From an uncultured Bacilli bacterium (GTDB lineage Bacteria > Bacillota_I > Bacilli_A > RFN20 > CAG-826): a stretch of DNA of 64,000 bases. The translations under genes were made by a program, and so were the position numbers. Shown here piece after piece: positions 9,242 through 34,612 of the stretch (position 1 is the stretch's first letter; each line of letters begins with the position of its first letter). Location of the stretch: positions 918 to 64,917 of the forward strand of contig CAKPNG010000003.1 in the NCBI GenBank assembly GCA_934168325.1. Reading direction: 5' to 3'. Below the pieces are notes generated by a model, which was not told where the DNA came from, did no database searches, and was given only the letters and a program-made list of their open reading frames with translations.

Positions 9242-9251
9242 GGATATAAAT

Positions 9252-16823: not shown

Positions 16824-18116
16824 ATGAAATGTGTTAATGTTGCAATATTTGGCTTAGGTAATAGAGGTAATACTTATGGGGAATTAGCTCTTATTAAATC
16901 TAATAAAATGAAAGTTGTTCAAATTGTAGACAATAATGAGACAGCTTTAAATTATGCAAAAAACTTATATAAATTAAATGATGAAGATTGTTTTTCTAGT
17001 TTTGAGAAATGGTTAAAAGCTCCTAAAAAGGCTGATGCAGTCATTAATTGTACAATGGACCAATATCACATCGAAACAACAATGCCATTATTTAAATTGG
17101 GATATGATGTATTACTAGAAAAACCAATTTGTAATAATCCAGAAGAATTAGTAATGTTAATGAATGAATCAAAAAAATACAATAAAGTATTAATGATTTG
17201 TCACGTTTTAAGATATACTCCATTTTATTCACGTATTAAAAAGATAATTGATTCTAAAGAATTAGGTGATTTAGTAAGTATTGAAATGGCAGAACACGTT
17301 TACACTCCTCATATGATGTCAAGTTATGTTAGAGGAAAATGGAGAAGCGAAAAGGAATGTGGTAGTGCAATGATTATGGCTAAATGCTGTCATGATACTG
17401 ACTTAATGTGCTGGCTTAATAATGGAGATAAACCAGATTATGTTTCAAGTTTTGGAAGAAGAAGTGTTTTTGTTCCTAAAAATAAACCAAGCGATGCTAC
17501 TGATAGATGTTTGACTTGTCCACATAAAGAAACTTGTAGATATTCTTGCTATTTTTACTTATTAAATAAAGCTCAAGATCCAATTGTATTTAATAATGCA
17601 GTTCCTGGAAAAAGATGGGATGAAGTTACAGTAGAAGATAAGACAAAAGTATTTATGGAATCTCCTACATTAGGAAGATGTGCTTTTGATGGTCCTCAAG
17701 ATTTAGTCGATCATCAAATGACTATTGTTGACTTTAATAATGGTGTAACTTGCTCACTTGCTATGATTGGTGGAACTTCTTATCCATGTCGTACAATTCA
17801 TATAATTTTAACTAATGGTGAAATCTTTGGAACGTTCGAATCTAATAAAATAACCACCAGAAAGTACATAAAAGAAAAGTTTTCTAGAGAAACTAAGAAT
17901 ATTTATTTAGGTGATGTTGGTAAAGGTCATGGTGGTGGAGATATCCGATTAGTAGAAGATTTCATTGACTATTTAAGAACAAGAAAATTGTCGATTTCTC
18001 AAACTAATATTGATACTTCAATCGATGGACATTTGGTTGGAATGGCCGCTGATTTAAGTGATAAAAATAGAAGAACCGTCGAAATAAGTGAAGATAGAAG
18101 GTTAATTTTAAAATAA
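16824..18116 (+). CDS. Gfo/Idh/MocA-family NAD(P)-dependent oxidoreductase with a Cys-rich insertion
   Basis: It has the N-terminal Rossmann motif VAIFGLGNRGNTYG and the EKP motif (LLEKPI). An unusual CLTCPHKETCRYSC cluster lies at 17508-17549. Confidence 0.8.
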   Translation: MKCVNVAIFGLGNRGNTYGELALIKSNKMKVVQIVDNNETALNYAKNLYKLNDEDCFSSFEKWLKAPKKADAVINCTMDQYHIETTMPLFKLGYDVLLEKPICNNPEELVMLMNESKKYNKVLMICHVLRYTPFYSRIKKIIDSKELGDLVSIEMAEHVYTPHMMSSYVRGKWRSEKECGSAMIMAKCCHDTDLMCWLNNGDKPDYVSSFGRRSVFVPKNKPSDATDRCLTCPHKETCRYSCYFYLLNKAQDPIVFNNAVPGKRWDEVTVEDKTKVFMESPTLGRCAFDGPQDLVDHQMTIVDFNNGVTCSLAMIGGTSYPCRTIHIILTNGEIFGTFESNKITTRKYIKEKFSRETKNIYLGDVGKGHGGGDIRLVEDFIDYLRTRKLSISQTNIDTSIDGHLVGMAADLSDKNRRTVEISEDRRLILK

Positions 18117-18117: not shown

Positions 18118-18792
18118 ATGAAACTCAATGAAGGATTAATTGTTTCTTGCCAAGCTTTAAAAGATGAACCAATGTATGGTGGTGATTCAATCAAAAAATT
18201 TGCTTATGCAGCTTATTTAGCTGGTGCAAAAGGAATTAGAGCTAATACAGTTAAAGATATAAATGGAATTTATCGTAAATTAAAGGGCCAATTACCAATA
18301 ATTGGTATTATTAAAAAAGTTTACGATGATTCAGAAGTTTATATTACCCCAACCTTAAAAGAAGTTAAAAAATTAATTAAATCTAAATGCGATGTAATAG
18401 CTCTTGATGCTACATTACGTTATAGACATAATGGTGAAAAACTTGAAGATTTAGTTAATTATATTAGATTACATTCTAATAAATTAATTATGGCTGATTG
18501 TGCAACTTTAGAAGAAACTAAAAATGCTGAAAAACTTGGATTTGATTATGTATCTTCAACTTTAAGAAGCTATACTGAAGAAACTAAAGGTATAAAAATA
18601 CCTGATATAGAATTTACAAAGTCGTTATTAAAAGAAATCACAAAAACTAATGTTATTTTTGAAGGAGGAATTGATTCTCCTCAAACTTTAAAAAGTGTAT
18701 TAAATACTGGTGTTAAATATATAGTAATTGGTGGTGCTATAACTAGACCATTACAAATAACAAAAAGATATTTAAAGGAATTTGAAAATTAA
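18118..18792 (+). CDS. nanE: N-acetylmannosamine-6-phosphate 2-epimerase
   Basis: GLIVSCQALKDEPMYG is the NanE signature. It also has IRANTVKDI, IIGIIKKVY and ALDATLRYRH. At 224 aa it has the typical NanE length. Confidence 0.8.
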   Translation: MKLNEGLIVSCQALKDEPMYGGDSIKKFAYAAYLAGAKGIRANTVKDINGIYRKLKGQLPIIGIIKKVYDDSEVYITPTLKEVKKLIKSKCDVIALDATLRYRHNGEKLEDLVNYIRLHSNKLIMADCATLEETKNAEKLGFDYVSSTLRSYTEETKGIKIPDIEFTKSLLKEITKTNVIFEGGIDSPQTLKSVLNTGVKYIVIGGAITRPLQITKRYLKEFEN

Positions 18793-18889
18793 CAAAAATT
18801 AATATTTTTTAATTTGAAATTATGCAAAATATATATAAAATTTAAGAAATATTAAGTTTATTATAGAATATAGTTAGCGAGGATTGATT

Positions 18890-20767
18890 ATGTTTAAAAA
18901 TAAGAATGGATTAACAAGAAAAGAAATCAAACAAAAAGAAAGAGAAGAATATGAAAAGCGTGTTATGAACTATAACAATGTTGTAGCAATCGAACTAGCT
19001 AATCGTAATAAACCAAAATCTTCACCAAAAGATAGTTTTGTTTCTATTCAAAAGGTTAATAAAATTTATGATAATTTAGTCCAAGCTGTTTTTGATTTTA
19101 GTTTAGATATTAAGAAAAATGAATTTATAGTTTTTGTTGGACCTAGTGGTTGTGGTAAATCTACTGTTTTAAGAATGATTGCTGGTCTAGAAGAAATTAC
19201 TTCAGGTAATTTATTTATTGATGGACAATATGCAAATTCATTACCTCCTAAGGATAGAAGCATAGCTATGGTTTTTCAAAGTTATGCTTTATATCCTCAC
19301 ATGTCAGTATATGATAATATGGCTTTTTCAATGAGAATTAAAGAAACTTTAGTTCCTGTTTTAGATGAAAATGGTAATCAAGTTTATGGACCTGATAAAG
19401 TTAAAATTGAAGAAATTAATAAGGAATTAGAAGGGTTTTATAAGAAAAAAGAGGAGTTTTCTAATATCGATAAATTAGAAGATGAGTTAAATATTCTTAA
19501 AGATGAAATTAAAAAAATCAAAGATGAAAATCCTAATTTAATTAAAAATAAAGAACTTAAACTTAAAGAAAAAGAAGAACATAAATTAGCATCTAAATTA
19601 TATGAAGCTAAATTAGAATTAAAAGATATAAATAAAAAAATAACTTTATTAGAAGAAAATTTGAAAGAAACTGAAAAGACTAATGTCCTTCAATTTATTT
19701 CTAAAAAACTTAATAAAGAAGAAATTGATGAAAGAGTAGATGAAGCTAGTAAAATTTTACAAATTGAAGAATATTTAGATAGAAAACCAAAAGCTCTTAG
19801 TGGTGGACAAAGACAACGTGTCGCTTTAGGAAGGGCTATTTGTAAAAGAGCTAAGTTATTTTTAATGGATGAACCATTAAGCAATCTTGATGCTAAACTT
19901 AGAGTTTCAATGAGAAGTGAAATTATTAGAATTCATAAAAAAATTGGCGCGACAACAATTTATGTTACTCATGATCAAACTGAAGCTATGACCATGGCAG
20001 ATAGAATTGTAATTATGAAAAAAGGTGTTATTCAACAAATTGGAAAACCTAAAGATATTTATAATCATCCTGCAAATATTTTCGTTGCAACATTTATTGG
20101 TAGTCCTTCAATGAATATCGTTAACACGAAAATTATTGATAATAAAATTAAATTTGATGATGAGAACGTCTTAAATTTAGAACCTTCTTTAGTTGACCAA
20201 TTAGTCCTTAAAATTAAAGAAAAGCTTGCAAAAATCAACTATTTTATTGAAAACGGCAAAGAACAAGAATATGAAAAAAGCTTAAATGTTAAGCACGAAG
20301 AATTTAAACTTAACGCTAATAAGAAAGGTTATAAATTTGAATTTGATGAAAATGATCAATTAATAGACCCATTAACTAGTATAAGTCTTGATGATTACGA
20401 AAAATCAATATGCGATAGAATTTATGAAGATAAATTAACTGAAGCTATTAAAGCTAAAGAACACTATGAAAAATTATTAGAAACTAAAGAATACGAAATA
20501 AAATTTGGTATTAGACCAGAAAATGTTTTTATTGAAAATAATTATGTTGAAGAAAACATTAAAGCTTCTAATAAATTAATATTAAAAATAACTATTCCTG
20601 AATTATTAGGAAATGAATATTATTTGCATAGCTCCTTACAAAATCATGATTTTATATTTAAAGCAAGTGCAAATAACGAATTAAAAGAAAATGATACTAT
20701 AAAAGTTGTATTTGATTTAAATAAAGTTCATATATTCGACACAGTTGACGATGAAATTTTGCTATAA
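18890..20767 (+). CDS. MsmX/MalK/UgpC-type ABC ATPase with N-terminal extension and two large internal insertions
   Basis: The track starts at TTG 18884. The ATG at 18890 follows GCGAGGA. It has Walker [11 protein letters not shown]-loop MVFQSYALYPH, signature [14 protein letters not shown], Walker [13 protein letters not shown] and H-loop VTHDQ. About 120 codons of Lys/Glu-rich coiled-coil-like sequence (about 19347-19711) separate the Q-loop region from the signature motif. Confidence 0.85.
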   Translation: MFKNKNGLTRKEIKQKEREEYEKRVMNYNNVVAIELANRNKPKSSPKDSFVSIQKVNKIYDNLVQAVFDFSLDIKKNEFIVFVGPSGCGKSTVLRMIAGLEEITSGNLFIDGQYANSLPPKDRSIAMVFQSYALYPHMSVYDNMAFSMRIKETLVPVLDENGNQVYGPDKVKIEEINKELEGFYKKKEEFSNIDKLEDELNILKDEIKKIKDENPNLIKNKELKLKEKEEHKLASKLYEAKLELKDINKKITLLEENLKETEKTNVLQFISKKLNKEEIDERVDEASKILQIEEYLDRKPKALSGGQRQRVALGRAICKRAKLFLMDEPLSNLDAKLRVSMRSEIIRIHKKIGATTIYVTHDQTEAMTMADRIVIMKKGVIQQIGKPKDIYNHPANIFVATFIGSPSMNIVNTKIIDNKIKFDDENVLNLEPSLVDQLVLKIKEKLAKINYFIENGKEQEYEKSLNVKHEEFKLNANKKGYKFEFDENDQLIDPLTSISLDDYEKSICDRIYEDKLTEAIKAKEHYEKLLETKEYEIKFGIRPENVFIENNYVEENIKASNKLILKITIPELLGNEYYLHSSLQNHDFIFKASANNELKENDTIKVVFDLNKVHIFDTVDDEILL

Positions 20768-20774: not shown

Positions 20775-22964
20775 ATGAATATTAAATTTGATAATATTAA
20801 TAAAATTTTTATATTAGAAAATAAAAATATAATCTATTCTTTTTATGTTAATGAAGTAGGTGTTTTAGTTAAATTATATTTTGGTGAAAAAATTCATGAT
20901 TTAACTAAAAACGCTATCAATTATATGAGTGATGTATCAGGGGATGTTTATTCTTATTATGATTTAAATAGCAAGAAAGAACATGAATTTTTTAATCCTT
21001 ATTTTTCAGGACAAGGCTCATTAATAGAGATACCATCATATTTAACTTATGATAAAAGAAAACCTTTAATCGTAATTAACCATAGTGATAATAGTTTAAT
21101 TACTGATTTTAGATATATTAGTCATGAAATTTTTAAAGGAAAAACTAAATTTGACAATATGCCTTATATTAAAGGCAAGGAAAATGAATGCATTACCTTA
21201 AAAATTACATTAAAAGATTTAAAAGATGAAATATATTTAGATGCTTATTATACAATTTATGAAGATTTAGATTTAATAGTTAGACATAATGAAATTATTA
21301 ATAAATCTAATAATCCTATTTATATTAATAAAGCTAGTTCATTAGCGTTAGATTTAAATAATGATGATTATAAATTAATGAGTATTCAAGGAACTTATGC
21401 TACTGATAGAGAAATAGAAATTCAAGATATTAAACATAACACTATATTAATAGAAGAAGTTTCAGGAGCTAAAGGCTTCTATCACAATCCAGTTTTTATG
21501 TTAAAACATAAAGATTCTAACGATGATTTTGGTGAAGTTATTGGCGGAGGTCTTGTTTATTCTGGTAATTTTAAATTCGAATTTAATGGAACTAATATGG
21601 ATCAAACAAGATGTATATTAGGCATAAATGATGATTATTTTGAAGCAAAATTAGATAAATTTGAGACTTTTATTACACCTGAAGCATTTTTAATTTATTC
21701 TTCTAAAGGAGTAAATTATGTTACTCATACTTTCCATGACTTTATTAGAAAACATGTTTTAAGATATGTTGATGGATTTGAAAATACTATCTTACTTAAT
21801 TCATGGGAAGCTTGTTTTATGGACTTTGATACTGATAAAATTAAAAATTTTATTACACAAGCTAAGAAAATGAATATTAATTTAGTAGTTTTAGATGATG
21901 GATGGTTTAGTAATAGAAATAATGATAGATCTTCTTTAGGTGATTGGTGGGTTAATAATAATAAAATTAATTTAAAAGAAGTAATTGATTATGCTCATTC
22001 TTTAAATATTAAATTTGGTTTATGGATTGAACCTGAACAAATTAGTTTTGATAGTGAATTATATAGAAAGCATCCTGAATTTGCTTTATTTGATAATTCG
22101 ATAAATCCTACTACATTAAGACATCAATTTGTTTTAGATTTAACTAATAAAGAAGCTAGAGATTATGTTTTTGATTCAATTTGTAAGATATTTGATACTT
22201 ACGATATTGATTATTGTAAATGGGATTTTAACCGCTTATTAACTGAAACTTATTCTATGACTTTATCTAAGGATAAAGAAAGAGAGATATTTCATTTATT
22301 CACTTTAGGAACTTATGATTTATTAAATAGATTTAATAAACGTTATCCTAATATTTTACTTGAAACATGTGCTGGAGGCGGAGGTCGATTTGATATAGGA
22401 ATGTTATTTTATTCACATCAAATATGGGCAAGTGATGAAACAGATGCAATTTCTAGATCACAAATTCAATATTCAACTAATTTATTTTATCCTTTAGAAT
22501 GCATTGGATCTCATGTAAGTGCTAGAAAATATTTATCTATTAAAGAAAAAGCTGCGGTTGCAATGTTTGGTACTTTTGGTTATGAATTAGATCCTACTAA
22601 GTTAAATGATGAAGATTTAAAAGAAGTTCATATTGCTAATGAAAGATTTTTAAATAATAAACATACTATTGATAAAGGAGATTATTATCCTTTAATTAAT
22701 CCTTATGAATCTAATTTTGTATGTTGGGAATTAGTAGAAAAAGATGCTAGTAGAGCTATAATTTATTTTATGAATTATCGACATATAAATTGGAAATCTA
22801 GATTTATTAAATTAAAAGGATTAAATAAAAATTATAAATATAAAAATAGTTTTAATAACGAAATTTATTATGGTGATTTTTATATGAATATTGGATTAAA
22901 TCTATCAATGGGAATGACTAATTTTACTCCACAACTTATAGAAATTATTAGAATTGATGAATAA
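20775..22964 (+). CDS. GH36 alpha-galactosidase / alpha-N-acetylgalactosaminidase family enzyme, cytoplasmic
   Basis: It has the GH36 motifs CKWDFNR, LLETCAGGGGRFD and IWASDETDAISR. It is 729 aa with no signal peptide. Confidence 0.85.
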   Translation: MNIKFDNINKIFILENKNIIYSFYVNEVGVLVKLYFGEKIHDLTKNAINYMSDVSGDVYSYYDLNSKKEHEFFNPYFSGQGSLIEIPSYLTYDKRKPLIVINHSDNSLITDFRYISHEIFKGKTKFDNMPYIKGKENECITLKITLKDLKDEIYLDAYYTIYEDLDLIVRHNEIINKSNNPIYINKASSLALDLNNDDYKLMSIQGTYATDREIEIQDIKHNTILIEEVSGAKGFYHNPVFMLKHKDSNDDFGEVIGGGLVYSGNFKFEFNGTNMDQTRCILGINDDYFEAKLDKFETFITPEAFLIYSSKGVNYVTHTFHDFIRKHVLRYVDGFENTILLNSWEACFMDFDTDKIKNFITQAKKMNINLVVLDDGWFSNRNNDRSSLGDWWVNNNKINLKEVIDYAHSLNIKFGLWIEPEQISFDSELYRKHPEFALFDNSINPTTLRHQFVLDLTNKEARDYVFDSICKIFDTYDIDYCKWDFNRLLTETYSMTLSKDKEREIFHLFTLGTYDLLNRFNKRYPNILLETCAGGGGRFDIGMLFYSHQIWASDETDAISRSQIQYSTNLFYPLECIGSHVSARKYLSIKEKAAVAMFGTFGYELDPTKLNDEDLKEVHIANERFLNNKHTIDKGDYYPLINPYESNFVCWELVEKDASRAIIYFMNYRHINWKSRFIKLKGLNKNYKYKNSFNNEIYYGDFYMNIGLNLSMGMTNFTPQLIEIIRIDE

Positions 22965-24153
22965 CGAATTAAATAAAAAAGACAAATATATATTAGCTAG
23001 CAATAAGTCAATCATACTAGCTAATTTAATTGATTCTCTTATTACTTTATTATTAATAGTAATTTCTTTTTTTGGTATTATTAGACCAATTTATTACAAT
23101 GCTTATCAATATAAAAAAGATGAAGAGATTAGTTTAAATAAAGAAAAAATACTTGAGATTGGAATGGATTCTCATTTAATTTACTATAATAATAAAACCA
23201 ATGCTATTAGTAATGTTGATGGACTTTATAAAATTTTTGTTTATCAAAATATAAAATTTTGCTATGAAAATTATAGTGAAATTTATAAAGAAGATTTAGA
23301 TAATGTTGGTTATTTAACTAAAAAAGATTTCTTTAAAGATGTCAAAAAAAACGATTATTTAAATAATGATTTAGCTTATTTTATGACAACTTATATTATT
23401 GATAAAGTTGATAAAAATAATAATAAAATATTAGAAGTAATAGATAATGATTATAAAAAATATTTTATAGATACTTTTATGGATATTAATAATACTGGTA
23501 GTAAATTTTTTACTTTTGATGGTGATTATAATACTTTACCTAGATTGAATATCGATACTTGTAGATATTTATTTCAATATAATGTAATGAAATCTAATTA
23601 TTCAACTTTAAGAAATGTCGATAATGAATTTTCTAATTATTTTACTAAATTATATAAAACTGCAGGTGATTATTTACTTAAATATAAAGATTATAATGAT
23701 AGTTTTTATAGATATGAAAAATTATATAATACTAAAAGTAATAATTTATTAGGCCTTATATTTTTATCTTATATAACTTCTATATCAATTTCAGAATTAT
23801 TAATACCTTTAGTTAACAAAAAAAGTAGAACTATTGGAGAATATATATTTAAATTATCTAGACTTAATCAAGATAAATCGTTTAATAAAATAACTATATT
23901 TAAAAATTATTTACTAGCTTTTATTAAACTTTTTTATTTATTATTCTTTATTATATTTATTGAAGGAAGTTTAAATTTATTAACATTTAAATTTTTAATT
24001 CTTGGTAATTTAACAATTTCATTTTTACATATAATATCTTTATTTATTATATTAAGTTCTATATCTTTAATATTAAAATTAACTTCTAAAACTCAAAGAA
24101 GTCTTGGAGAAAGAATATTTAAATTTAAATATTATCAAGAAACTATTTCTTAG
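22957..24153 (+). CDS. Polytopic membrane protein with RDD-like segments, function unknown
   Basis: The ATG at 22957 overlaps the GH36 stop (the track uses TTG 22954). The N-terminal LANLIDSLITLLLIVISFFGII helix and the SRTIGEYIFKLSRL / RSLGERIFKFKY segments resemble RDD-family features. The assignment is weak. Confidence 0.4.
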   Translation: MNNELNKKDKYILASNKSIILANLIDSLITLLLIVISFFGIIRPIYYNAYQYKKDEEISLNKEKILEIGMDSHLIYYNNKTNAISNVDGLYKIFVYQNIKFCYENYSEIYKEDLDNVGYLTKKDFFKDVKKNDYLNNDLAYFMTTYIIDKVDKNNNKILEVIDNDYKKYFIDTFMDINNTGSKFFTFDGDYNTLPRLNIDTCRYLFQYNVMKSNYSTLRNVDNEFSNYFTKLYKTAGDYLLKYKDYNDSFYRYEKLYNTKSNNLLGLIFLSYITSISISELLIPLVNKKSRTIGEYIFKLSRLNQDKSFNKITIFKNYLLAFIKLFYLLFFIIFIEGSLNLLTFKFLILGNLTISFLHIISLFIILSSISLILKLTSKTQRSLGERIFKFKYYQETIS

Positions 24154-24967
24154 TTTCTAAATATAATTTACGATATTGCATTGGCGTGATGCCAGCGTGT
24201 ATTTTAAATTTTCTAATAAAATTATTTACACTATTAAAACCACATTCTAAAGCAATTTCTTTTATTGATTTATTAGTAATCTTTAATAATCTTTTTGAAG
24301 CATTTATTTTTATATTAGATAAATAATCTTTATAAGTAAATCCAGTTTTCTTTTTAAAATAATCACAGAAATAATTTCTTTGATAACCACAATAATCACT
24401 TAATTCTTGTAAAGTTGGATTAGAAGAATAATTTTCGTGAATATATTTTAAAACACTAACAATAGGACTTTGAGAACTTTCTATAGCTTCAGGAGTTTGT
24501 CTAGATCCAATAATTATAAGAAGTAAAGCATTTAATAAATGACTTAATATATCTTCTTTATTAGAACGATGACTATTAAATATTTCTTGTATTAATTTAA
24601 TTGTAGTTTTAATTTGATTAAGCTTATTTTCACTTAATTCAATTACAATACCACTTTCATAATTTAAGAAGTTTGAAATAATTTCTTCATCAATTACCGA
24701 ATTAGTAAAAGCAATGTTATACATTGTAATTGGTTTAGTAGCAAAAATTTGATGGTAATCAGTTGGATGAAATAAAAAAATTGTAGAATAATCAATTTCA
24801 TGTCTAACACCATTAATTATTTCATAGCCTTCGCCTTCAATAGGCAATTCTATTTCATAAAATTCATGGAAATGGAGTGGATATTCCTTTTCTATTTTTG
24901 ACATAACAAAATAAATTTCACTTCCATGTAAGAAATTCGTATTTAAAAATTTAGCTTCATTAACCAT
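24143..24967 (-). CDS. AraC/XylS-family transcriptional regulator (cupin sensor domain plus HTH)
   Basis: The C-terminal dual HTH reads LQELSDYCGYQRNYFCDYFKKKTGFTYKDYL...IKEIALECGFNSVNNFIRKFKIHAGITPMQYRK. The N-terminal cupin-like region reads HFHEFYEIELPIEG. It is transcribed divergently from 25236. Confidence 0.85.
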   Translation of the reverse strand: MVNEAKFLNTNFLHGSEIYFVMSKIEKEYPLHFHEFYEIELPIEGEGYEIINGVRHEIDYSTIFLFHPTDYHQIFATKPITMYNIAFTNSVIDEEIISNFLNYESGIVIELSENKLNQIKTTIKLIQEIFNSHRSNKEDILSHLLNALLLIIIGSRQTPEAIESSQSPIVSVLKYIHENYSSNPTLQELSDYCGYQRNYFCDYFKKKTGFTYKDYLSNIKINASKRLLKITNKSIKEIALECGFNSVNNFIRKFKIHAGITPMQYRKLYLETKK

Positions 24968-25235
24968 ATTTTTATTCTAACATTTTAAAATATAAAATAA
25001 CCATATTTTTCTTAAAAAAAGAATATTTTCATTATTTTATGTATTTTTTTGATAATTTAATAAAAATTAATATTCTTTTTTATAAAAACTATTGTTTTTA
25101 GATAAAAATTAACATTTATTAAGAAAAATTATAATCGTAAATTAAAAATAGCATTTAAAAAATCTTAATATTTTATTATTTTATCGAACTTTAAATCAAT
25201 ATTATTATATTATAATAATATTAGGAGTTTAGGTT

Positions 25236-26390
25236 ATGACTTTAAATAATAAATTTAAAATTGCGATGGCAGTTATTGCTACATCATGTAGTGTTCTTTT
25301 TAGTTGTAATAAAGAAAATAATATTATGGGAAATATTGATAAAGAAATATCAAATTTAAATATTTTTAATGATAGTTCAATAAATTTATATGGTAGAAGT
25401 AAAGTTATTGATTATAACAATAAAAAACAAGTATTTTTTGGATTTACTGCTACTGGATTTGAATTAATATGCGAGCCAACTAGTGAGATAAATGAAATTA
25501 AAGCAACATTATTAAGTGAATCTGAAAGTCATGAACATCAATATATAAAAACTTATATAGACGGTAAAGAAAAAGAAGTTATTGAATTAAATAAAGGCGA
25601 ACAAGAAGTTACATTATTTAAAAATTTACAAGCAGGTAAGCATCAACTTAAGGTTTTAAAAATGAATGAACTTAGTACAACTAAATTATATATGTCTAGC
25701 TTAGCTGGTTCTAATTTAAAATATTATAAAAGAACTTATAATCCTAAACGAAATTTAATAGAATTTTATGGAGATTCTATTACTGCTGGCTATGGAAATT
25801 TAGGCGATCCTAGTAGTAAAACTTATTTAACAAAAGAACAAGATGGGACTTTATCTTATGCGCAACAATTAGCAGATAAATTAGATTGTGATTCATCAAT
25901 TATTGCATGGAGTGGAATTGCTTTAACTAAGACTTTAGCTCCTTATGGTGTTGATATGATGGATAAATATGACACTTATGATGGTGTTAATAAGTATGAT
26001 GGTGAAAATAATAAACCTAAAATAGCTATTATAAATTTAGGTAGCAATGATTATGGTGGCTATTTTGATGAAAATAAAAGCAGTGCTGAAAAGAAAAAAG
26101 GCATCGAAGAATTTATTAAAAATTATGGAATTATAGTTGATTATATTAAAGCTAGATCTCCTGAATGTAAAATTATTTCTTGTTATAACATGTGTTATGA
26201 TATCGGAACTAAATTAATAAGTGCTATTAAAACATCAAATAGTAATATTAATGAAAAATATGGAGCAAATACTGGATACGTTTTACAATTTGGTGGAAAT
26301 CAAAGCGGATCAAATGGTCATCCTTCATTAATTGCTCATAATACATATACAAAAATATTATATGATTTTATAGAAAAGAATATTAAATAA
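25236..26390 (+). CDS. Surface lipoprotein, SGNH esterase with N-terminal beta-sandwich (CE2-like architecture)
   Basis: It has an AGGAG RBS. The lipobox is MAVIATSCSVLFSCNK. The SGNH blocks are FYGDSITAGYGNLG (I), INLGSNDYG (III) and SNGHPS (V). A 354-aa paralogue lies at 30867-31931. Confidence 0.75.
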   Translation: MTLNNKFKIAMAVIATSCSVLFSCNKENNIMGNIDKEISNLNIFNDSSINLYGRSKVIDYNNKKQVFFGFTATGFELICEPTSEINEIKATLLSESESHEHQYIKTYIDGKEKEVIELNKGEQEVTLFKNLQAGKHQLKVLKMNELSTTKLYMSSLAGSNLKYYKRTYNPKRNLIEFYGDSITAGYGNLGDPSSKTYLTKEQDGTLSYAQQLADKLDCDSSIIAWSGIALTKTLAPYGVDMMDKYDTYDGVNKYDGENNKPKIAIINLGSNDYGGYFDENKSSAEKKKGIEEFIKNYGIIVDYIKARSPECKIISCYNMCYDIGTKLISAIKTSNSNINEKYGANTGYVLQFGGNQSGSNGHPSLIAHNTYTKILYDFIEKNIK

Positions 26391-26401
26391 AGGGGTTTAT
26401 T

Positions 26402-28339
26402 ATGAATTATAGAAGAATAATTTTTCCACTTGTACTTTCTACTTTATTAGTGGGGTTAGGTAGTAATCAAAAACCTAATAGTATTAATAATGATTTTGAT
26501 AATTCTATTAGTAATAGAAGTGCTATTAAAATTGATACTACTGTTGCTAAAACTTATGATAAGAAATCTAATTTAGTTAGTCCTACTTATTTTAATAGCG
26601 AAATAAGTAGTTTAGATCAATTAAAAGCTTTTAGCGAAAGTGAAATAAGACCATCTAATATTATAATTTATGTTAATAATAAACTTGAAATATGTGATAA
26701 GAATTTAAATAGTTTTAATATAAGTTTAAAAGATGGATTTAATACTTATATCAAAGAAAAAATGATTGCCGATATTTATCTTAGTGATGAAGAAATTACA
26801 GATAAATTTATTGAATATATTGATAATACTTTTTGCTCTTTAGATTTTGCTGTTATTAGTAATAATCCTGCTTTAGTTAAAAAAGTTAGATGTAGTAATG
26901 GTAATGGAGCTAAGATTAGAGGTATTATTGATTATAGTAATAAGACTGAATTAAACTTAGGTAAAATTGTTAATGAATCAACTGATGCTAGAGCCAATAT
27001 CGTGATTATTAATGAGGATTTAGCCACTTATGATAATATTAAGTACCTTTATGGAAGAATGAAAGTTGTATGGACTTTTGTCAATGAATACTCTGATTTA
27101 AAGGTAGTTGATTTATTAAGCAAAGGCATTTACGGAATCATAACTAATGAAATAAATAAAGCTAATGATTGCTATGCATATTTTGAAAAAACTCAACAAC
27201 CACAAAAGAATACTAATAGAACAAGTATAAATATTGCTCATCGTGGATTATGTATGACAACTTATGAAAATTCTTATGAAGGGTGTAAGAAAGCTATTAA
27301 AAATGGTGCATCACATATAGAAATAGATGCTCATCTAACTAAAGATAAAAAGATTGTTGTAATGCATGATGAAACTATTGATCGAACATGTAATGGCACT
27401 GGAAAAATTAAAGAAATGACCAGTGAAGAAATATCACAATATAAGATTATTAAAAACTATAGTGGTATTACAGTTGGAAAAGGAGTTCATATTCCTTTCT
27501 TAGATGAAATATTAAAATTATGTAAAGAAACAGGAACTGTCTTAGTTTTAGAAATTAAATGTGATGATGCTGATTTTGTAGATTATTTAAAACCATATCT
27601 TGATGAATCAGACATGTATGATCAAGTTGTATGCATTTCATTTTATAACGCTCAATTAACTAGAATGATAGATAAGATAAGTACAATTCCTTGTTCAACT
27701 TTAAATAATTTTAATGAATTAATGTTTAATAAAGTTACTAGTGATGGTATAGCTGTATTAAATAGTAATAATTTCGGTATAGATTTAAATAGAAGTTTAT
27801 ATAATAAAACTTATGATAAAAGATTAGCTGAAAGAGGATTTGCAGGATATTATTGGACTTATGATAATGCAACAAGCATGTATCAAGGAATGAATAATGG
27901 TGTTGTTGGATTGACTAATAACTATGCTGATGTTATTAAAGATTTTGCTATTAGACCAATATTACTTGAAGAATATGAATTAGATAAAGGCGTAAGTTAT
28001 AGTGATTTTACTATTGAAAGTAAATATTTAACTTATGGTGGAGATAGTGGTGAAAAAACAATTGAAATGAAACCATTCTTTATCGAAGAACATGATAATT
28101 ATGCTTATGTTGTTATGAGTGGATTATATTTAGGACCTAAAGGTACTCCTCAATATAAGTCTGTTATATTTAGTGATGTTATTAAATTAGTTAATAATAA
28201 TAAAACTGAAACTAAAAAAGGATGTGGAGGAAGTATAGTTTCTACATCAATAATTGCTTCAATAATTGCTTTAATGGGAATTACTTTTACTTATCTTATT
28301 ACACGTAAAAGAAAAGAAGAAAATAGTAATGACTTTTGA
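26402..28339 (+). CDS. Membrane-anchored glycerophosphodiester phosphodiesterase (GDPD) family ecto-enzyme
   Basis: It has an N-terminal signal sequence (IIFPLVLSTLLVGLG). The GDPD catalytic motifs are NIAHRGL...ENSYEGCKKAIKNGASHIEIDAHLTKDKKIVVMHDETIDRTCNGTG. The C-terminal anchor reads KKGCGGSIVSTSIIASIIALMGITFTYLITRKRKEE. Confidence 0.75.
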   Translation: MNYRRIIFPLVLSTLLVGLGSNQKPNSINNDFDNSISNRSAIKIDTTVAKTYDKKSNLVSPTYFNSEISSLDQLKAFSESEIRPSNIIIYVNNKLEICDKNLNSFNISLKDGFNTYIKEKMIADIYLSDEEITDKFIEYIDNTFCSLDFAVISNNPALVKKVRCSNGNGAKIRGIIDYSNKTELNLGKIVNESTDARANIVIINEDLATYDNIKYLYGRMKVVWTFVNEYSDLKVVDLLSKGIYGIITNEINKANDCYAYFEKTQQPQKNTNRTSINIAHRGLCMTTYENSYEGCKKAIKNGASHIEIDAHLTKDKKIVVMHDETIDRTCNGTGKIKEMTSEEISQYKIIKNYSGITVGKGVHIPFLDEILKLCKETGTVLVLEIKCDDADFVDYLKPYLDESDMYDQVVCISFYNAQLTRMIDKISTIPCSTLNNFNELMFNKVTSDGIAVLNSNNFGIDLNRSLYNKTYDKRLAERGFAGYYWTYDNATSMYQGMNNGVVGLTNNYADVIKDFAIRPILLEEYELDKGVSYSDFTIESKYLTYGGDSGEKTIEMKPFFIEEHDNYAYVVMSGLYLGPKGTPQYKSVIFSDVIKLVNNNKTETKKGCGGSIVSTSIIASIIALMGITFTYLITRKRKEENSNDF

Positions 28340-29117
28340 TAAATTTATAAAAATACTTGGGTTTAGCAAGGTTAATTGTAAAAAAATCAAGGAAATCTTC
28401 AATAATAATATTTATAATTTTTATAAAATTTATAGTGATTTAACTAAAGAAAATGCTGATTTTGAAGAAATTAAAAATAGTTTAAACGATGAAGATGGAT
28501 TCATTATGTTAACAACTTATTTATATAAAGCGTTCTCTTTATCTAAAACTTATAAGAGTTTAAATATTAATCAAGATATATATTTTGATACATTTAAATG
28601 CTTTAATAGATTTTTATTAGAAACTAAAAAAGCGACAAAAAAATATATATTTGATAGATATTGGTGGACTTATAGACAAACTGAAATGTTAGAATTTAGA
28701 ATAGGTGAATTAGAATATGAAATATCTCATAAAACAAAAGAAATATATATTCATATTCCTAGTGATGCTAAATTAATTCAAAAAGATATTATTAAATCAA
28801 TAAAAGATGCTCAAGAGTTTTTCTTAAATAAATTCAATATTGATTATAAGTTTTGTTTAAATAGCTGGTTATTAAGTCCAAAATTAAAAGAAATATTAAA
28901 AGAAGATTCTCATATTAAAGAATTTATGAATTTATTTGATATAAAAGATGTTAATAAAGATAGCGACGATTGTATTTTCTGGGTATTTAATACTTATTCA
29001 AAAGATATAAATTCTTATAAAGAAAATACAAGTTTACAAAGATATATTAAAAACATTTTATTAAATGGTGAACATTTAGGCTCAGCCTATGGAATATTAA
29101 AAGGAGGCGTTATATGA
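28329..29117 (+). CDS. Cytoplasmic protein resembling the NAT_N/GNAT_C (DUF5596-type) acyltransferase-like family
   Basis: The pattern FRIGELEYEI...IYIHIPSD...AQEFFLNKF...FCLNSWLLSPKLKEIL matches my recollection of that family (LGRLQF...HIP...SWLL.P.L). It has no signal peptide and overlaps both neighbours. Confidence 0.4.
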   Translation: MTFDKFIKILGFSKVNCKKIKEIFNNNIYNFYKIYSDLTKENADFEEIKNSLNDEDGFIMLTTYLYKAFSLSKTYKSLNINQDIYFDTFKCFNRFLLETKKATKKYIFDRYWWTYRQTEMLEFRIGELEYEISHKTKEIYIHIPSDAKLIQKDIIKSIKDAQEFFLNKFNIDYKFCLNSWLLSPKLKEILKEDSHIKEFMNLFDIKDVNKDSDDCIFWVFNTYSKDINSYKENTSLQRYIKNILLNGEHLGSAYGILKGGVI

Positions 29118-30559
29118 AAAAATTTGCTAATAAAATAGTTTTGGTTGGTATTATGGCTATGGGTTTATTTAGTTGTAATAAAAAAGAAGATGGACCAATT
29201 GTTAAACCTGATCCCGAACCAACTCCTACTCCAACTCCAGAACCAGTAGAAGAAACAATATTTGATTCGCTTGCTCCCGGGAAGAATAAAACTTATCCAA
29301 AATTAGAAGAATTTACTCCTACTTTATTTAAAAAAGATACTTTTAAAAAGGTTAGAGAAATAAATTTAATTGATGGAGCCGATTATATTACATATTCTTT
29401 TAATTTAAATAATGATCATAAAGTAATTGCTAATATTATTGATGTAGACTTAACAAAAGCTAAAATTGATACAAATTATGCTAAAAGTGGGATTGATACT
29501 GCTTATGGACAATTAATTGATTATCAAAATAGTACTAATAAAAAAATAGCAGCTATTATGAATGCAGATTTTTTTGCGACAGGTAGTGGAACTTCAGTTA
29601 ATGCTTATGTTAAAGATAATGAAATTATTAAAAGCAAACATAATGATAATGGAGTATATGATTATAAAGATTTAAAGAGTGATTTACCTGCTTCTAAACC
29701 AATGCTTATAGGATTTAGTGGCAATGAGGCTAAAATTTCCCCAATTGTTAATAATAAAAATATTGAAGAAACAGTAAAAACTGGCTTTAGTTATCAAATT
29801 ATTTATTTAAATGAAAATAAAGATACTATCAATATTAAAGACAATGTTTATTATAATTCTATAAATATGAATGGAGATAATTCATTTAATATAGTTAATT
29901 CTAATATTAGTGTTTCTTTATCTACTAATGATAATATTTATAAGATTAAGAAAGAAGATTCTAATACTTTTATTAAAGGCAAATTAACTAATATTAGTAA
30001 GCAAAAAGCTGATGGTAAGAAATCTTTTAAAGATTGTGATCAATATTTCTATATTATTAGTAAGAAAGAAATGAATTTTAAAATAGATGATCAAATTGGT
30101 TTTAGTATTACTAATAATAAAGATGAAACTTTTGATTATTATAATAATGTAATTGGTGGTAGACAAAGTTTAGTTGAAAATGGAAAAATTGCTCCTACTG
30201 TTACTTTAGAAAATACTAATGGTGCTCAAGTTAAAGATATTCCCCGTAGTGCTGTTGGTGTTGTTAATAAAAATAGAGTTTTATTATGCACGATCGAAGC
30301 TTTAAGATATAACAAAAAGTTAACTAATGTTGAAGCAACTGATTCTTATGGTCTTAATTTACCAGAATTAGCGGAACTTATGCGATATTTAGGATCTTAC
30401 GATGCTCTTAATTTTGATGGTGGGGGATCTACTCAACTTATTACTCAAGATATGAGTAATAATGAACTTACTTTAAGAGTAAGAAGTTCTGATTATGGAA
30501 CTTATAATCTTAAAGATTGTCGTAAAGTTTATAATACAATCTTAGTTACTAATAAATAA
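29114..30559 (+). CDS. Surface lipoprotein with phosphodiester glycosidase (NAGPA/DUF2233-like) domain
   Basis: It has an AGGAGG RBS. The lipobox is LVGIMAMGLFSCNK. The linker reads PDPEPTPTPTPEPVEE. The C-terminal region RSAVGVVNKNRVLLCTIE...YDALNFDGGGSTQL is characteristic of the family (DGGGS motif). Confidence 0.65.
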   Translation: MKKFANKIVLVGIMAMGLFSCNKKEDGPIVKPDPEPTPTPTPEPVEETIFDSLAPGKNKTYPKLEEFTPTLFKKDTFKKVREINLIDGADYITYSFNLNNDHKVIANIIDVDLTKAKIDTNYAKSGIDTAYGQLIDYQNSTNKKIAAIMNADFFATGSGTSVNAYVKDNEIIKSKHNDNGVYDYKDLKSDLPASKPMLIGFSGNEAKISPIVNNKNIEETVKTGFSYQIIYLNENKDTINIKDNVYYNSINMNGDNSFNIVNSNISVSLSTNDNIYKIKKEDSNTFIKGKLTNISKQKADGKKSFKDCDQYFYIISKKEMNFKIDDQIGFSITNNKDETFDYYNNVIGGRQSLVENGKIAPTVTLENTNGAQVKDIPRSAVGVVNKNRVLLCTIEALRYNKKLTNVEATDSYGLNLPELAELMRYLGSYDALNFDGGGSTQLITQDMSNNELTLRVRSSDYGTYNLKDCRKVYNTILVTNK

Positions 30560-30866
30560 TTATTATTAAGATAAATACTTAAGTTAATAAAGTCTACAGA
30601 ATAAAAATGTGGATTTTTAATGTTGATTAAAAATGATGCGTTTTTATCAAATTTGCCACTATTAGCGGCAAAATTTGCATTAACTAATAGCTCAATTTTT
30701 ATCGAACGTATTAAAACCGCGATATTATAATTTGATAAAGGTTTCTTTTTTTATGTGATGTATATTTCATAAGTAATGAGTTAAAAGATTACTATTTTAA
30801 TGATAAATAATGACATAACTAGGTATATTTGTAGTATAATTTCAAATAGATTTAAAGGGAAAGATT

Positions 30867-31931
30867 ATGAATTATATTGATAAAGAAATAGATAATTTAA
30901 ATATATTTGATGGAAGTTCTATTAATTTATATGGTCGAAGTAAAATTCTAGATTATAAAGATAAAAAGCAAATATTTTTTGGCTATACTGGAACTGGTTT
31001 TGAATTAATTATTGAAGCTATTAATATTAATAATGAATTAAAAGCTACATTATTAACTGAATCTGATTTATATGAGCATCAATATATTAAGATATATATA
31101 GATAATAAAGTAGATAAAGTAATTGAATTAACTAAAGGAGAAGAAAAAGTTACTTTAATTAAAAATTTAGAAATAGGTAAACATCAAATAAAAGTAATTA
31201 AAATGAATGAACTTAATACTACTAAATTATATATGTCTAATTTAGTAGGTAAAAATTATAAATATTATAAAAGAACTTATAGTCCTAAAAGAAATTTAAT
31301 TGAATTTTATGGAGATTCTTTAACTGCTGGATATGGTAATTTAGGTAATCCTAGTGTTAAAGCTTATCTAACTAGTGAACAAGATGGAACTATCGCTTAT
31401 GCTAATTTAGTAGCTAATAAATTAGATTATGATCCATCTATTATATGTTTTAGTGGAGTATCTTTAACTAAATCTTTATCTATATTTGGTTTAAATATTA
31501 TGGATAAATATGATACTTATGATGGTATTCATAAGTATCATGGAGATAATAATATACCTAATATAGCAGTTATTAATTTAGGTACTAATGATAATACAGG
31601 TTATTTAGATATAAATACTAAAGAAATAGATAAAGTAAATGGTATTAATGAATATATTAATAATTTTGATATATTAGTTAATTATATTAAAAATAAAGCA
31701 CCTAAATGTAAGATTGTATGTTGCTATAATATGTCTTTTCCTTTTACTAAAGAGATGCTTAATGCTTTAAATATAAGTGTTAATAATGTTAATAAGAAAT
31801 ATGGAGATAATACTTGCTTTATGATTGGATTTAAAGGCGATACTAATGGATCTGATGGGCATCCATCATATTTAGCTCATAAAGAATATGCTGATATTTT
31901 ATATAAATTTATTATTGATAAAATTATATAA
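30867..31931 (+). CDS. Leaderless paralogue of the CE2-like SGNH esterase
   Basis: It is collinear with residues 32-384 of the 25236 gene (MNYIDKEIDNLNIFDGSSINLYGRSK... versus ...GNIDKEISNLNIFNDSSINLYGRSK...). It has the same SGNH blocks (FYGDSLTAGYGNLG, INLGTNDN, SDGHPS). It has no signal peptide. Confidence 0.8.
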   Translation: MNYIDKEIDNLNIFDGSSINLYGRSKILDYKDKKQIFFGYTGTGFELIIEAININNELKATLLTESDLYEHQYIKIYIDNKVDKVIELTKGEEKVTLIKNLEIGKHQIKVIKMNELNTTKLYMSNLVGKNYKYYKRTYSPKRNLIEFYGDSLTAGYGNLGNPSVKAYLTSEQDGTIAYANLVANKLDYDPSIICFSGVSLTKSLSIFGLNIMDKYDTYDGIHKYHGDNNIPNIAVINLGTNDNTGYLDINTKEIDKVNGINEYINNFDILVNYIKNKAPKCKIVCCYNMSFPFTKEMLNALNISVNNVNKKYGDNTCFMIGFKGDTNGSDGHPSYLAHKEYADILYKFIIDKII

Positions 31932-32047
31932 AATATAATTGATATAATCATTATTATTTATATTAATTGATAAATTCACAAATAGTAAATTGACAAGATA
32001 ATTTATTAGAATTATTATTTTTGCGTAATAAATTTAGGGGGAAATTT

Positions 32048-33049: not shown

Positions 33050-33077
33050 TTTATAATATAAATATTAAATAAATATG

Positions 33078-33106
33078 AATGTCTCTAGTTAGTTAGGGAC
33101 ATTTTT
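33078..33106 (+). terminator. Rho-independent terminator
   Basis: AATGTCTCT-agttagtt-AGGGACATT (one G-U pair) is followed by TTTT, 29 nt after the stop codon at 33047-33049. Confidence 0.6.
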
Positions 33107-33250
33107 AATATATTGTTTTAAAAAGAACTAAGAGGATTTAAAAAAAGATATTTAATTACAAAAAAATTACAAAAAAATTACTTTTTACATTAATTTTATT
33201 GTAAAAACATTCGGCTGTATCGAATAAAATTACTATTTTTTAAAATTTTG

Positions 33251-33279
33251 TTGTTTTGTAAGCGCTTACAATTTATAAT
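33251..33279 (+). promoter_or_regulatory. Sigma-A-type promoter (TTGTTT, 17 nt, TATAAT) whose spacer is filled by a perfect palindromic cre (33257-33270)
   Basis: TGTAAGCGCTTACA is a perfect 14-bp palindrome and matches the cre consensus TGWAANCGNTNWCA. The TATAAT box lies at 33274-33279. Confidence 0.6.
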
Positions 33280-33367
33280 AAAGGAGATACGAGAAAACTT
33301 AATTCTTACCGATAAAATAAGTTTTCTATAAATCAATGGAATATTTTTAGGAGGACAATAAAACAAT

Positions 33368-34561: not shown

Positions 34562-34580
34562 TTAATAAAAAGTTAGTATT

Positions 34581-34612
34581 TAGGACACTATCTTAAGATA
34601 GTGTCCTATTTT
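34581..34612 (+). terminator. Strong intra-operon rho-independent terminator/attenuator between the SBP and ATPase genes
   Basis: TAGGACACTATC-ttaa-GATAGTGTCCTA is a 12-bp perfect stem followed by TTTT. Confidence 0.8.

Follow-up and report, generated by a model that had tools for sequence, protein, structure and literature searches.

A module of CE2 esterase, GDPD phosphodiesterase and NAGPA-type glycosidase at the head of a putative glycan import-and-digest locus in an uncultured Bacilli bacterium

Introduction

A stretch of 64,000 nucleotides (nt) from an uncultured Bacilli bacterium (contig CAKPNG010000003.1 of assembly GCA_934168325.1; hereafter the window) encodes, at 24143-31931, an AraC-type regulator and a divergent cluster of two CE2-type esterases, a GDPD phosphodiesterase, an N-acyltransferase-like protein and a NAGPA/DUF2233-type phosphodiester glycosidase. 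We propose, with a probability of roughly 45%, that these genes are the regulator and the extracellular front end of a single import-and-digest glycan locus of ~31 kb that serves the use of phosphodiester-anchored wall glycopolymers of neighbouring Gram-positive bacteria. The individual proteins are ordinary members of known families, and the whole is a generic Gram-positive glycan-utilisation locus; its composition sets it apart.

Teichoic acids and related phosphodiester-linked polymers account for a large share of the wall mass of Gram-positive bacteria. Diesters of the N-acetylhexosamine (HexNAc)-alpha-1-phosphate type attach wall teichoic acids and secondary wall polymers to N-acetylmuramic acid (MurNAc) and also link the repeat units of poly(glycosyl-1-phosphate) polymers, and N-acetylmannosamine (ManNAc) is a signature sugar of wall-polymer linkage units. 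The known teichoicases are single enzymes that serve phosphate scavenging or the remodelling of the cell's own wall. GlpQ degrades glycerol-phosphate wall teichoic acid (PMC7086022) and, according to Jorge 2018 as cited in PMC9208761, also that of other staphylococci, and WhyD (SPD_0880) of Streptococcus pneumoniae, a GDPD enzyme anchored in the membrane, frees wall teichoic acid from sacculi (PMC9208761). The only known chemistry of the NAGPA family is the cleavage of N-acetylglucosamine (GlcNAc)-alpha-1-phosphodiesters, in which the glycosidic C-O bond of the GlcNAc-1-phosphate diester is broken by means of the Asp of the DGGGS motif (PMC13474241). Additionally, NAGPA domains are known in fusion with surface phosphoesterases for which an action on teichoic acids has been proposed (PMC11488536).

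Here, we describe a computational analysis of this cluster and of its surroundings. An original prediction, made from the same DNA, had seen in the cluster a self-contained five-gene candidate system for dismantling phosphodiester-linked glycopolymers and had known of no described system of such composition. Our results support that interpretation in part. In the searchable literature we likewise found neither a catabolic locus built round a NAGPA-type phosphodiester glycosidase, whether accompanied by a multidomain GDPD or not, nor a dedicated catabolic locus for teichoic acids or related phosphodiester-linked polymers.

Results

The surface module at 24143-31931

The six open reading frames (ORFs) of the original prediction are present at 24143-31931, and all of their domain calls lie above the curated Pfam gathering scores; the Pfam scans took in every window ORF with a length of 150 amino acids (aa) or more, 47 in all. 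The regulator, a member of the AraC/XylS family (24143-24967, minus strand), contains HTH_AraC in two stretches, HTH_18 and AraC_binding and reaches no NCBIfam equivalog at cut-off. It is divergent from the first esterase gene, from which it is separated by a 268-nt spacer. This esterase, CE2a (25236-26390, plus strand), is a surface lipoprotein and predicted CE2 O-acyl esterase, with a lipobox LFSC at aa 21-24, the motifs GDS179, GSND269 and GHP361, matches to CE2_N (40.9 bits) and Lipase_GDSL_2 (49.7 bits), and a match to the structure of Clostridium thermocellum CtCE2 (2wao, E 2e-22). Its paralogue, CE2b (30867-31931, plus strand), scores 41.0 bits with CE2_N, for which the threshold is 27.9, and shares the GDS and GHP motifs. 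With the NCBIfam equivalog for AxeC2 acetylxylan/glucomannan esterase (NF042969) the paralogues score 43 and 58 bits, under a cut-off of 500. CE2b and CE2a share 62% identity, counted from residue 31 of the latter; since CE2b begins at that residue it is without a signal peptide, and it is predicted to be cytoplasmic. It is found among relatives solely in the loci L005 and L057, and is a recent, lineage-specific duplicate.

The phosphodiesterase gene (26402-28339, plus strand) encodes a multidomain protein of 645 aa in which the GDPD domain (PF03009; 102.6 bits against a gathering score of 23.6) spans aa 280-510. The family motifs HRG280-282, EIDAH307-311 and MHDET321-325 are intact, and H280-R281-G282, E307, D309 and H322-D323 are invariant in 10 homologues. 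A signal peptide is followed by an alpha/beta domain of unknown type (aa ~60-265), the GDPD barrel (aa ~276-515), a beta-sandwich (aa ~520-597) and a C-terminal transmembrane anchor. The N-terminal domain was considered as a degenerate second GDPD barrel, and this was rejected at an hhalign probability of 0.5%. Transmembrane hydrophobicity is reached by the C-terminal helix alone (~residues 616-642, plus a basic tail), whereas the N-terminus is a short signal-peptide-like hydrophobic stretch without a lipobox Cys in 9 of 10 homologues; the anchoring at both ends that had been proposed is thus overstated, and the C-terminal helix alone resembles a membrane anchor. The C-terminus (28220-28339) consists of KKGCGGS, a hydrophobic helix and RKRK and recalls Cys-containing C-terminal sorting signals, with the Cys present in about half of the 10 homologues.

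An AlphaFold2 (AF2) model of the GDPD protein (pLDDT 83) matches in Foldseek GlpQ (5t9b/5t9c), 4r7o, 2oog and 9f5m at E values of 1e-15 to 1e-14 and TMt of 0.65-0.83. Its catalytic barrel superposes on GlpQ, and judged by target coverage the model fits best with the GDPD domain of gp155 of staphylococcal phage K (TMt 0.83). The structural alignment is shallow because the homologue search yielded 14 proteins. By sequence, the best matches are the generic small-substrate GDPDs 7e0v and 2pz0, and scores with the NCBIfam GlpQ and UgpQ equivalogs lie far under their cut-offs (69.5 against 264).

Next in order is a predicted cytoplasmic protein of 262 aa (NAT; 28329-29117, plus strand), which resembles the Dbv8/tcp24 N-acyltransferases (NAT_N 51.3 bits, threshold 27.8; GNAT_C 125.2 bits, threshold 22.8); its match to Dbv8 (4mfz, E 1e-9) spans the C-terminal domain only. 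It is followed by NAGPA (29114-30559, plus strand), a surface lipoprotein and predicted phosphodiester glycosidase with a PF09992 score of 76.1 bits against 25. The DGGGS motif at aa 435-439 (nt 30416-30430) and the lipobox Cys21 are both invariant in 29 homologues, and profiles of the protein match 3ohg (E 8e-17) and vertebrate NAGPA (~1e-6). The full-length subfamily is a small one: of 1.84 billion cluster representatives, 66 belong to it at E<=1e-30, compared with 6840 for the domain at large.

Spacing of the genes fits a single transcription unit from CE2a to NAGPA: an 11-nt gap separates CE2a from GDPD, GDPD overlaps NAT by 11 nt and NAT overlaps NAGPA by 4 nt, and a 307-nt spacer then precedes CE2b. 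The separate promoter originally proposed for CE2b is a putative one, since shuffled sequence yields more promoter-like matches than this AT-rich DNA does. A terminator scan called none between NAGPA and CE2b. The spacer holds an imperfect inverted repeat (aaatttgcc N9 ggcaaaattt, 30662-30690), likewise not called by the terminator scan, which could be a weak terminator or an operator.

Conservation of the module among Mollicutes-like and other Bacilli

Synteny was assessed on contigs encoding NAGPA homologues together with 49 loci of GTDB species representatives, onto which all window proteins were mapped by tblastn and family hidden Markov models. The organism is a Mollicutes-like Bacillus of the gut. 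The closest public relative is the metagenome-assembled 'Mollicutes bacterium' isolate SUG431 (L005), whose proteins are 88-99% identical to those of the window; remoter relatives are labelled Candidatus Onthovivens, Bacilli, Anaeroplasmataceae or Erysipelotrichaceae, and many homologues originate in herbivore guts (rabbit, horse, rumen, chicken). The order CE2-GDPD-(NAT)-NAGPA is kept in L001-L009 and L057. It is found in all close relatives with enough flanking DNA, and it is the same in strains that are 98% (L057) and 93% (L005) identical and in relatives at ~40-55% protein identity. Orthologues of AraC, 62-63% identical, occupy the same divergent position in L002 and L007. Furthermore, GDPD lies directly upstream of NAGPA in L011, L013 and L014, at 34-45% protein identity, and the two genes are neighbours, or have NAT alone between them, in 8 GTDB species loci and 4 metagenomic loci. 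Because the gene order persists across relatives, the module is conserved and is no chance juxtaposition. The original prediction had named a lack of conserved synteny as one of the observations that would refute it; what we see is synteny.

In L003 and L056, which belong to one scaffold, the module heads a single co-directional and tightly packed array. Its order is AraC (on the minus strand), a helix-turn-helix (HTH) gene, CE2, GDPD, NAGPA, a 631-aa orphan, a second GDPD, two further orphans, a binding protein, two permeases, an SGNH esterase of the GxDLY type, DUF4127, a ROK kinase, GH20, GH31, a GFO/IDH/MocA oxidoreductase, NanE, a long MsmK-type ATPase and GH36. The second GDPD is a paralogue of the same architecture within the same array, and the module is flanked in relatives by NagA and an SIS deaminase, or by PIG-L and SIS. 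In the window the genes of this array are found at 808-24153, rotated to a position upstream of AraC, and the functional unit therefore extends over ~808-31931, about 31 kb. Thus the five genes are not a self-contained system, as had been proposed, but the extracellular head of a much longer locus.

Loci of the Clostridia and the partners of NAGPA

A different arrangement prevails in 33 Clostridia species, many of them labelled Christensenella or Christensenellaceae, where CE2 is absent and GDPD rare near NAGPA (4 of 33). In these species the gene for the NAGPA lipoprotein stands first in an operon of great stability, composed of NAGPA, SGNH_GxDLY, DUF4127, ROK, GH20, GH31, NAT and RpiR, in which NAT is the last enzyme gene. 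Partners were counted within 10 kb of NAGPA in the 49 species loci; the counts for the Bacilli are lower bounds, since their partner genes sit outside the 10-kb flank. The most frequent partners are DUF4127 and GH31 (32 loci each), SGNH_GxDLY (31), GH20 (29) and ROK (26), followed by NAT (23), RpiR (20), GDPD (15), a GH26-like protein (10) and CE2 (8). NAGPA, DUF4127, GH31 and GH20 thus make up a more conserved core, to which particular lineages have added GDPD and CE2.

A third arrangement, in L055, L022, L025 and L046, comprises DUF4127, GH31, Big2, GDPD, a GH26-like gene, NanE, NAGPA, SGNH and DUF4127, and its GDPD has the same architecture with a long N-terminus. Additionally, five Christensenella-like loci (L020, L027, L028, L030 and L042) carry a gene for a membrane-anchored phosphoesterase of the EEP family directly upstream of the NAGPA operon, in the ~5 kb upstream of NAGPA; all five also have a divergent BD-FAE esterase, and all except L042 an SGNH lipoprotein. 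EEP, SGNH lipoprotein and NAGPA are an independent, non-orthologous surface trio of esterase, phosphoesterase and NAGPA, and we regard them as the best independent support for the enzymatic logic of the original prediction. The housekeeping genes rpsO and pnp lie just ahead of the EEP and BD-FAE genes in Christensenella-like loci. L020, recorded as Parasutterella excrementihominis, has a typical Clostridia-type operon with low-GC, Firmicute-like proteins and was probably mis-binned into a Proteobacteria genome.

The upstream array at 808-24153

All genes of the upstream array are on the plus strand. The first three encode orphan lipoproteins, for which Pfam and NCBIfam gave no relatives and profile searches against PDB sequences nothing credible. 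They are unk581 (808..2517), a surface lipoprotein with lipobox LASC, a Pro/Thr/Glu linker and Big2-like repeats, whose start is the ATG at 808 behind the ribosome-binding site AAAAGGAG; unk503 (2717..4228), with a mean column identity of 67% over 8 homologues and syntenic with the binding protein and permeases; and unk459 (4234..5613), conserved in 10 loci. The three always lie upstream of the binding protein and permeases. A homologue of unk581 stands directly downstream of NAGPA in relatives, and unk581 and the NAGPA lipoprotein have a PTPEPTPTPTPEP-type linker in common.

An importer of the ATP-binding cassette (ABC) type follows, with a lipoprotein solute-binding protein (5629..7281; lipobox ITSC, a weak MalE-type match, and a match to SBP_bac_1 by its L001/L056 homologue) and two permeases (7306-8334 and 8336-9241), both of which match BPD_transp_1 and are 81-84% identical in relatives. 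A predicted cytoplasmic SGNH esterase of the GxDLY/Lipase_GDSL_3 type (9231..10379; 118.6 and 82.3 bits in Pfam) has as its sole PDB match 4lhs, an uncharacterised protein. The adjoining DUF4127 protein (10403..11905; PF13552, 463 bits), also predicted to be cytoplasmic, is highly conserved: the mean column identity is 60% in an alignment of 34 sequences, and many Asp, Arg, Cys and Asn residues do not vary at all. Its AF2 model has a pLDDT of 94.5, and Foldseek of this model against the PDB returned no fold match (best TM ~0.2). DUF4127 is often paired with GH31, with two of each in some loci; we found no literature on DUF4127/PF13552.

The remaining genes encode a ROK-family sugar kinase (11911..12774; Pfam ROK), a GH20C-type beta-N-acetylhexosaminidase (12771..14606; Glyco_H_20C_C 168.7 bits, and Glyco_hydro_20) and a GH31 protein of the alpha-glucosidase type by Pfam (14593..16821). 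The GH20 enzyme has no signal peptide, and both glycosidases are predicted to be cytoplasmic. The nearest PDB entries of GH31 are alpha-glucosidases (3n04, glucosidase II), and its match to the MalA-type NCBIfam model is under the cut-off. A Pfam GFO/IDH/MocA oxidoreductase (16824..18116), generic in NCBIfam, precedes NanE, the N-acetylmannosamine-6-phosphate 2-epimerase (18118..18792), a confident call at 189.6 bits in Pfam and 269.5 against a cut-off of 189 with NCBIfam PRK01130. An MsmK-type ABC ATPase of 627 aa (18884..20767; ABC_tran in two stretches, OB_MalK) is followed by a predicted cytoplasmic GH36 protein of the alpha-galactosidase type (20775..22964; Melibiase 371 bits, with further matches to both terminal domains of GH36). 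The ATPase has a Lys/Glu-rich coiled-coil insertion of ~130 aa within its nucleotide-binding domain; relatives retain this insertion at an unchanged length, and the ATPase of one relative likewise has 627 aa. The last gene of the upstream operon (22954..24153) encodes a polytopic membrane protein without a family match, which is confined to near-identical strains and whose 3' end overlaps the 3' end of AraC by 11 nt.

Topology and proposed pathway

A lipoprotein or secretion signal is present in seven proteins of the locus, namely the three orphans, the binding protein, CE2a, GDPD and NAGPA, and none is found on the GxDLY esterase, DUF4127, ROK, GH20, GH31, GFO, NanE, GH36, NAT or CE2b. The locus brings together a regulator, a binding-protein ABC importer and both surface and cytoplasmic carbohydrate-active enzymes, the hallmarks by which a generic Gram-positive polysaccharide-utilisation locus is recognised.

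What we observe are the identities of the genes and their domains, the catalytic motifs, the localisation predicted for the proteins and the synteny; from these we infer the following enzymatic steps and their substrate. AraC would turn on the divergent operon. At the cell surface, the CE2a lipoprotein would remove O-acyl decorations, the C-terminally anchored, GlpQ-like GDPD would cleave glycerophosphodiester bonds, and the NAGPA lipoprotein would split HexNAc-alpha-1-phosphodiester bonds. The gene content suggests that the fragments are caught by the three orphan lipoproteins and the binding protein and imported by the ABC transporter. In the cytoplasm, CE2b and the GxDLY-type SGNH esterase would take off leftover esters, NAT might re-acylate free amino sugars so that GH20, which requires N-acetyl groups, can work, and GH20, GH31, GH36 and DUF4127 would dismantle the oligosaccharides. 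Finally, the ROK kinase and NanE would channel ManNAc and GlcNAc to glycolysis.

The end products are probably amino sugars that include ManNAc-6-phosphate, because NanE passes its cut-off and because relatives carry NagA or PIG-L, each with SIS, beside the module. Neither the 64-kb window nor any annotated related locus yielded a NanA, sialidase, fucosidase, beta-galactosidase, mannosidase or endo-GlcNAcase, and sialic acid is an unlikely origin of the ManNAc since NanE is present with neither NanA nor sialidase. ManNAc without sialic-acid genes, a beta-HexNAc-ase, an alpha-glucosidase, an alpha-galactosidase, O-acyl esterases, a GlpQ-like phosphodiesterase and NAGPA chemistry together point to a bacterial source. 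The regulators are of sugar type (AraC, RpiR), which argues for the harvesting of carbon and nitrogen rather than the scavenging of phosphate.

The substrate class that appears most likely is that of O-acylated, phosphodiester-linked, amino-sugar-rich glycopolymers, above all wall polymers of the teichoic-acid type with their HexNAc-1-phosphate linkages. Candidates within it are glycosylated poly(glycerol phosphate) teichoic acids, poly(glycosyl-1-phosphate) polymers and the ManNAc-GlcNAc-1-phosphate-MurNAc linkage unit. In this respect the original prediction, which had proposed a phosphodiester-linked polymer from fewer genes, gains from the wider locus: an amino-sugar polymer of this kind fits the presence of GH20, GH31, GH36, ROK and NanE, to which relatives add NagA and the SIS deaminase.

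Discussion

Comparison with known systems

The window GDPD resembles GlpQ of Bacillus subtilis and Staphylococcus aureus, which acts there alongside PhoD, in its TIM barrel, in its His-Arg, Glu-Asp-His and His-Asp motifs and in its extracellular location. GlpQ, however, is a secreted single-domain protein of ~290 aa that is induced by phosphate starvation, whereas the window enzyme has 645 aa with an additional N-terminal alpha/beta domain, a beta-sandwich and a C-terminal anchor, and its gene adjoins the NAGPA gene in an AraC-linked sugar-catabolic locus. WhyD also carries a membrane-anchored GDPD domain, but it has seven N-terminal transmembrane segments, tailors its own wall and is linked to neither importers nor glycosidases. 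With human NAGPA (the uncovering enzyme) and Bacteroides ovatus BACOVA_00430 (DUF2233, 3ohg) the window NAGPA shares PF09992 and the invariant DGGGS loop with the catalytic Asp; it differs from them in being a lipoprotein of very low identity to either, with an insertion of ~140 aa, that belongs to a small clade.

The Dbv8/tcp24 (Orf11*) glycopeptide N-acyltransferases, which acylate the free amine of a glucosamine residue, have the NAT_N and GNAT_C domains of the window NAT. The latter is shorter by ~80 aa at its N-terminus and is encoded in a catabolic context, not in one of antibiotic biosynthesis. As a whole, the locus matches in plan the beta-mannan loci of Roseburia intestinalis and Faecalibacterium prausnitzii, in which a surface depolymerase and binding-protein ABC import are combined with an intracellular CE2, a second esterase, GH36 and exo-enzymes (PMC8262883). 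Both have the layout of loci that would cut outside, import, and dismantle inside, and CE2, a second esterase and GH36 are common to both. In contrast, the window has no GH26, GH113, GH130, GH3 or epimerase of the beta-mannan route and encodes instead GDPD, NAGPA, GH20, GH31, DUF4127, NanE and NAT. A plant beta-mannan locus was accordingly rejected on the lack of GH26, GH113 and GH130 in the window, and readings as a yeast-mannan or N-glycan locus on the lack of mannosidases and endo-GlcNAcases.

Weight of the evidence

Several observations weigh against wall glycopolymers as the substrate. In the literature that we found, no bacterial NAGPA/DUF2233 protein has a known natural substrate. The locus contains no recognisable phosphomonoesterase to complete the phosphate chemistry. 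GH31 (alpha-glucosidase-like), GH36 and CE2 suit dietary alpha-glucosides, raffinose and acetylated plant glycans too, and GH26-like genes occur in some relatives, to which the GH26-like lipoprotein is confined. By its known mechanism GH20 cannot cleave beta-ManNAc, so that nothing in the locus accounts for the release of ManNAc unless DUF4127, GFO or the GH26-like protein performs it. The ROK kinase scores below the NCBIfam cut-offs for glucokinase, NanK and NagK alike. A shared AraC operator was sought in the three promoter regions (466-807, 24968-25235 and 30560-30866) and in the spacer before the ATPase gene; the best matches (14-17 of 18, against 15-16 in shuffles) are not convincing, and no motif common to the three regions rises above chance. 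Moreover, GDPD accompanies this NAGPA in 15 and CE2 in 8 of the 49 loci, so that a strict three-enzyme logic of esterase, GDPD and NAGPA is not conserved; that part of the original prediction is not supported, and its broader enzymatic logic finds support in the EEP, SGNH and NAGPA trio of some Clostridia.

Four other explanations have to be considered. The one that we take most seriously, although we think it unlikely, is a mixed sugar island without a common substrate, in which GDPD scavenges small glycerophosphodiesters, the esterases, GH36 and GH31 act on dietary oligosaccharides and NAGPA is unrelated to either. Mycoplasma GlpQ scavenges such small compounds, for example glycerophosphocholine and glycerophosphoinositol of host or dietary lipids, and the small-substrate sequence matches of the window GDPD, the alpha-glucosidase-like GH31 and melibiase-like GH36, several further sugar ABC systems in the window and the many Clostridia loci (most of those with this NAGPA) that have no GDPD or CE2 would all be accommodated. 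What such an island would not predict is that GDPD and NAGPA remain adjacent, with overlapping or near-touching frames, down to 34-45% identity in 8 species, that the GDPD is a membrane-tethered multidomain protein of 645 aa unlike the compact GlpQ and UgpQ, that a second GDPD of the same architecture occurs within the array of relatives, or that this array is wholly co-directional and tightly packed. Slightly less probable still is a phosphodiester glycan from a source other than Gram-positive walls, such as capsular or exopolysaccharide phosphoglycans, enterobacterial common antigen, fungal or protozoal phosphoglycans, or glycolipids of the glycosylphosphatidylinositol (GPI) or glycosyl inositol phosphoryl ceramide (GIPC) type. 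The enzymatic logic would be identical to that proposed for wall polymers; the herbivore guts from which homologues come are rich in fungi, protozoa and plant lipids, the loci contain a PIG-L-type deacetylase and a NAT-like enzyme directed at glucosamine, and EEP phosphoesterase replaces GDPD in some of them. The window, however, holds no mannosidases of GH38, GH76, GH92, GH99 or GH125 and no inositol or uronate genes, and NanE indicates ManNAc, which is typical of bacterial polymers.

We consider improbable a variant nan cluster for the foraging of host mucin and sialoglycans, in which the SGNH esterases would take O-acetyl groups off sialate, derivatives of sialic acid would be handled by GFO, ROK and NanE, and GH20 and GH36 would trim O-glycans. 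The set of AraC, a binding protein, two permeases, GFO/IDH/MocA, ROK, NanE and an SGNH esterase does resemble the nan clusters of gut Firmicutes of the Ruminococcus gnavus type, NanE is called with confidence, and host glycans are targets of GH20C-type enzymes. Yet neither NanA lyase (DHDPS/NanA family) nor GH33 sialidase, and likewise no fucosidase (GH29/95) or beta-galactosidase, is encoded in the window or in the related loci examined, and GDPD, NAGPA and the alpha-glucosidase-type GH31 would be left unexplained; a nan cluster proper was rejected on the lack of NanA and sialidase. Equally improbable, in our estimate, is a role of the surface enzymes in remodelling or recycling the cell's own envelope polymers. 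WhyD and GlpQ are precedents for this (PMC9208761, PMC7086022), and tethering holds the enzymes at the surface of the cell that makes them. Against it stands the catabolic import design, with an ABC importer, cytoplasmic exo-glycosidases, a kinase, an epimerase and sugar-type regulators. The closest genomes, moreover, are labelled Mollicutes, classically a wall-less group.

We therefore return to the wall glycopolymers of neighbouring Gram-positive bacteria as the favoured substrate. An extension of this proposal, which we regard as doubtful, is that the small NAGPA clade supplies the key surface enzyme of an unrecognised pathway by which uncultured gut Firmicutes, both Mollicutes-like Bacilli and Christensenellales-like Clostridia, feed on wall glycopolymers that are anchored through phosphodiesters in other bacteria. 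The enzyme would cut the HexNAc-1-phosphate bonds by which such polymers are attached or polymerised. If so, bacterial DUF2233 would have its first physiological role, and the pathway would include new enzymes or binding proteins in the form of DUF4127 and the three orphan lipoproteins. More generally, use of wall glycopolymers by this locus would provide a route for the recycling of bacterial necromass in the gut, a function for bacterial NAGPA/DUF2233 proteins, a testable context for DUF4127 and the three orphan lipoprotein families, and enzymes that detach or depolymerise wall polymers and could be used as tools or as anti-Gram-positive agents. Whatever the substrate, the conserved NAGPA-SGNH-DUF4127-ROK-GH20-GH31-NAT operon is a well-defined experimental target.

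Other features of the window

The window has a G+C content of ~25%, and Rfam and tRNA scans of it found no RNA genes. Promoter-like matches numbered 58, against 86.6 expected from shuffles, and in DNA with 22% G+C the promoter and terminator scans are uninformative. Between CE2b and a 655-aa ATPase lie ~7.2 kb (32021-39075) that encode a DUF308-like membrane protein, a sugar ABC transporter of the Peripla_BP_4 type and, on the minus strand, a 283-aa ORF without a family; this stretch is absent from the same place in the 93%-identical L005, and its first genes are present in the 98%-identical L057. The ATPase (39271-41238, 655 aa) is the second unusually long one in the window and has a C-terminal extension of ~290 aa. 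Three consecutive ORFs of 844, 367 and 399 aa without a Pfam family occupy 46843-51674, among genes for a LacI regulator, a sugar ABC transporter, a nucleoside hydrolase, DUF624 and a PfkB kinase. Finally, a HydABC-type electron-bifurcating [FeFe] hydrogenase set at 58140-62305, consisting of NuoE-like and NuoF-like proteins and the large subunit of an Fe-only hydrogenase, fits a fermentative, H2-producing gut anaerobe.

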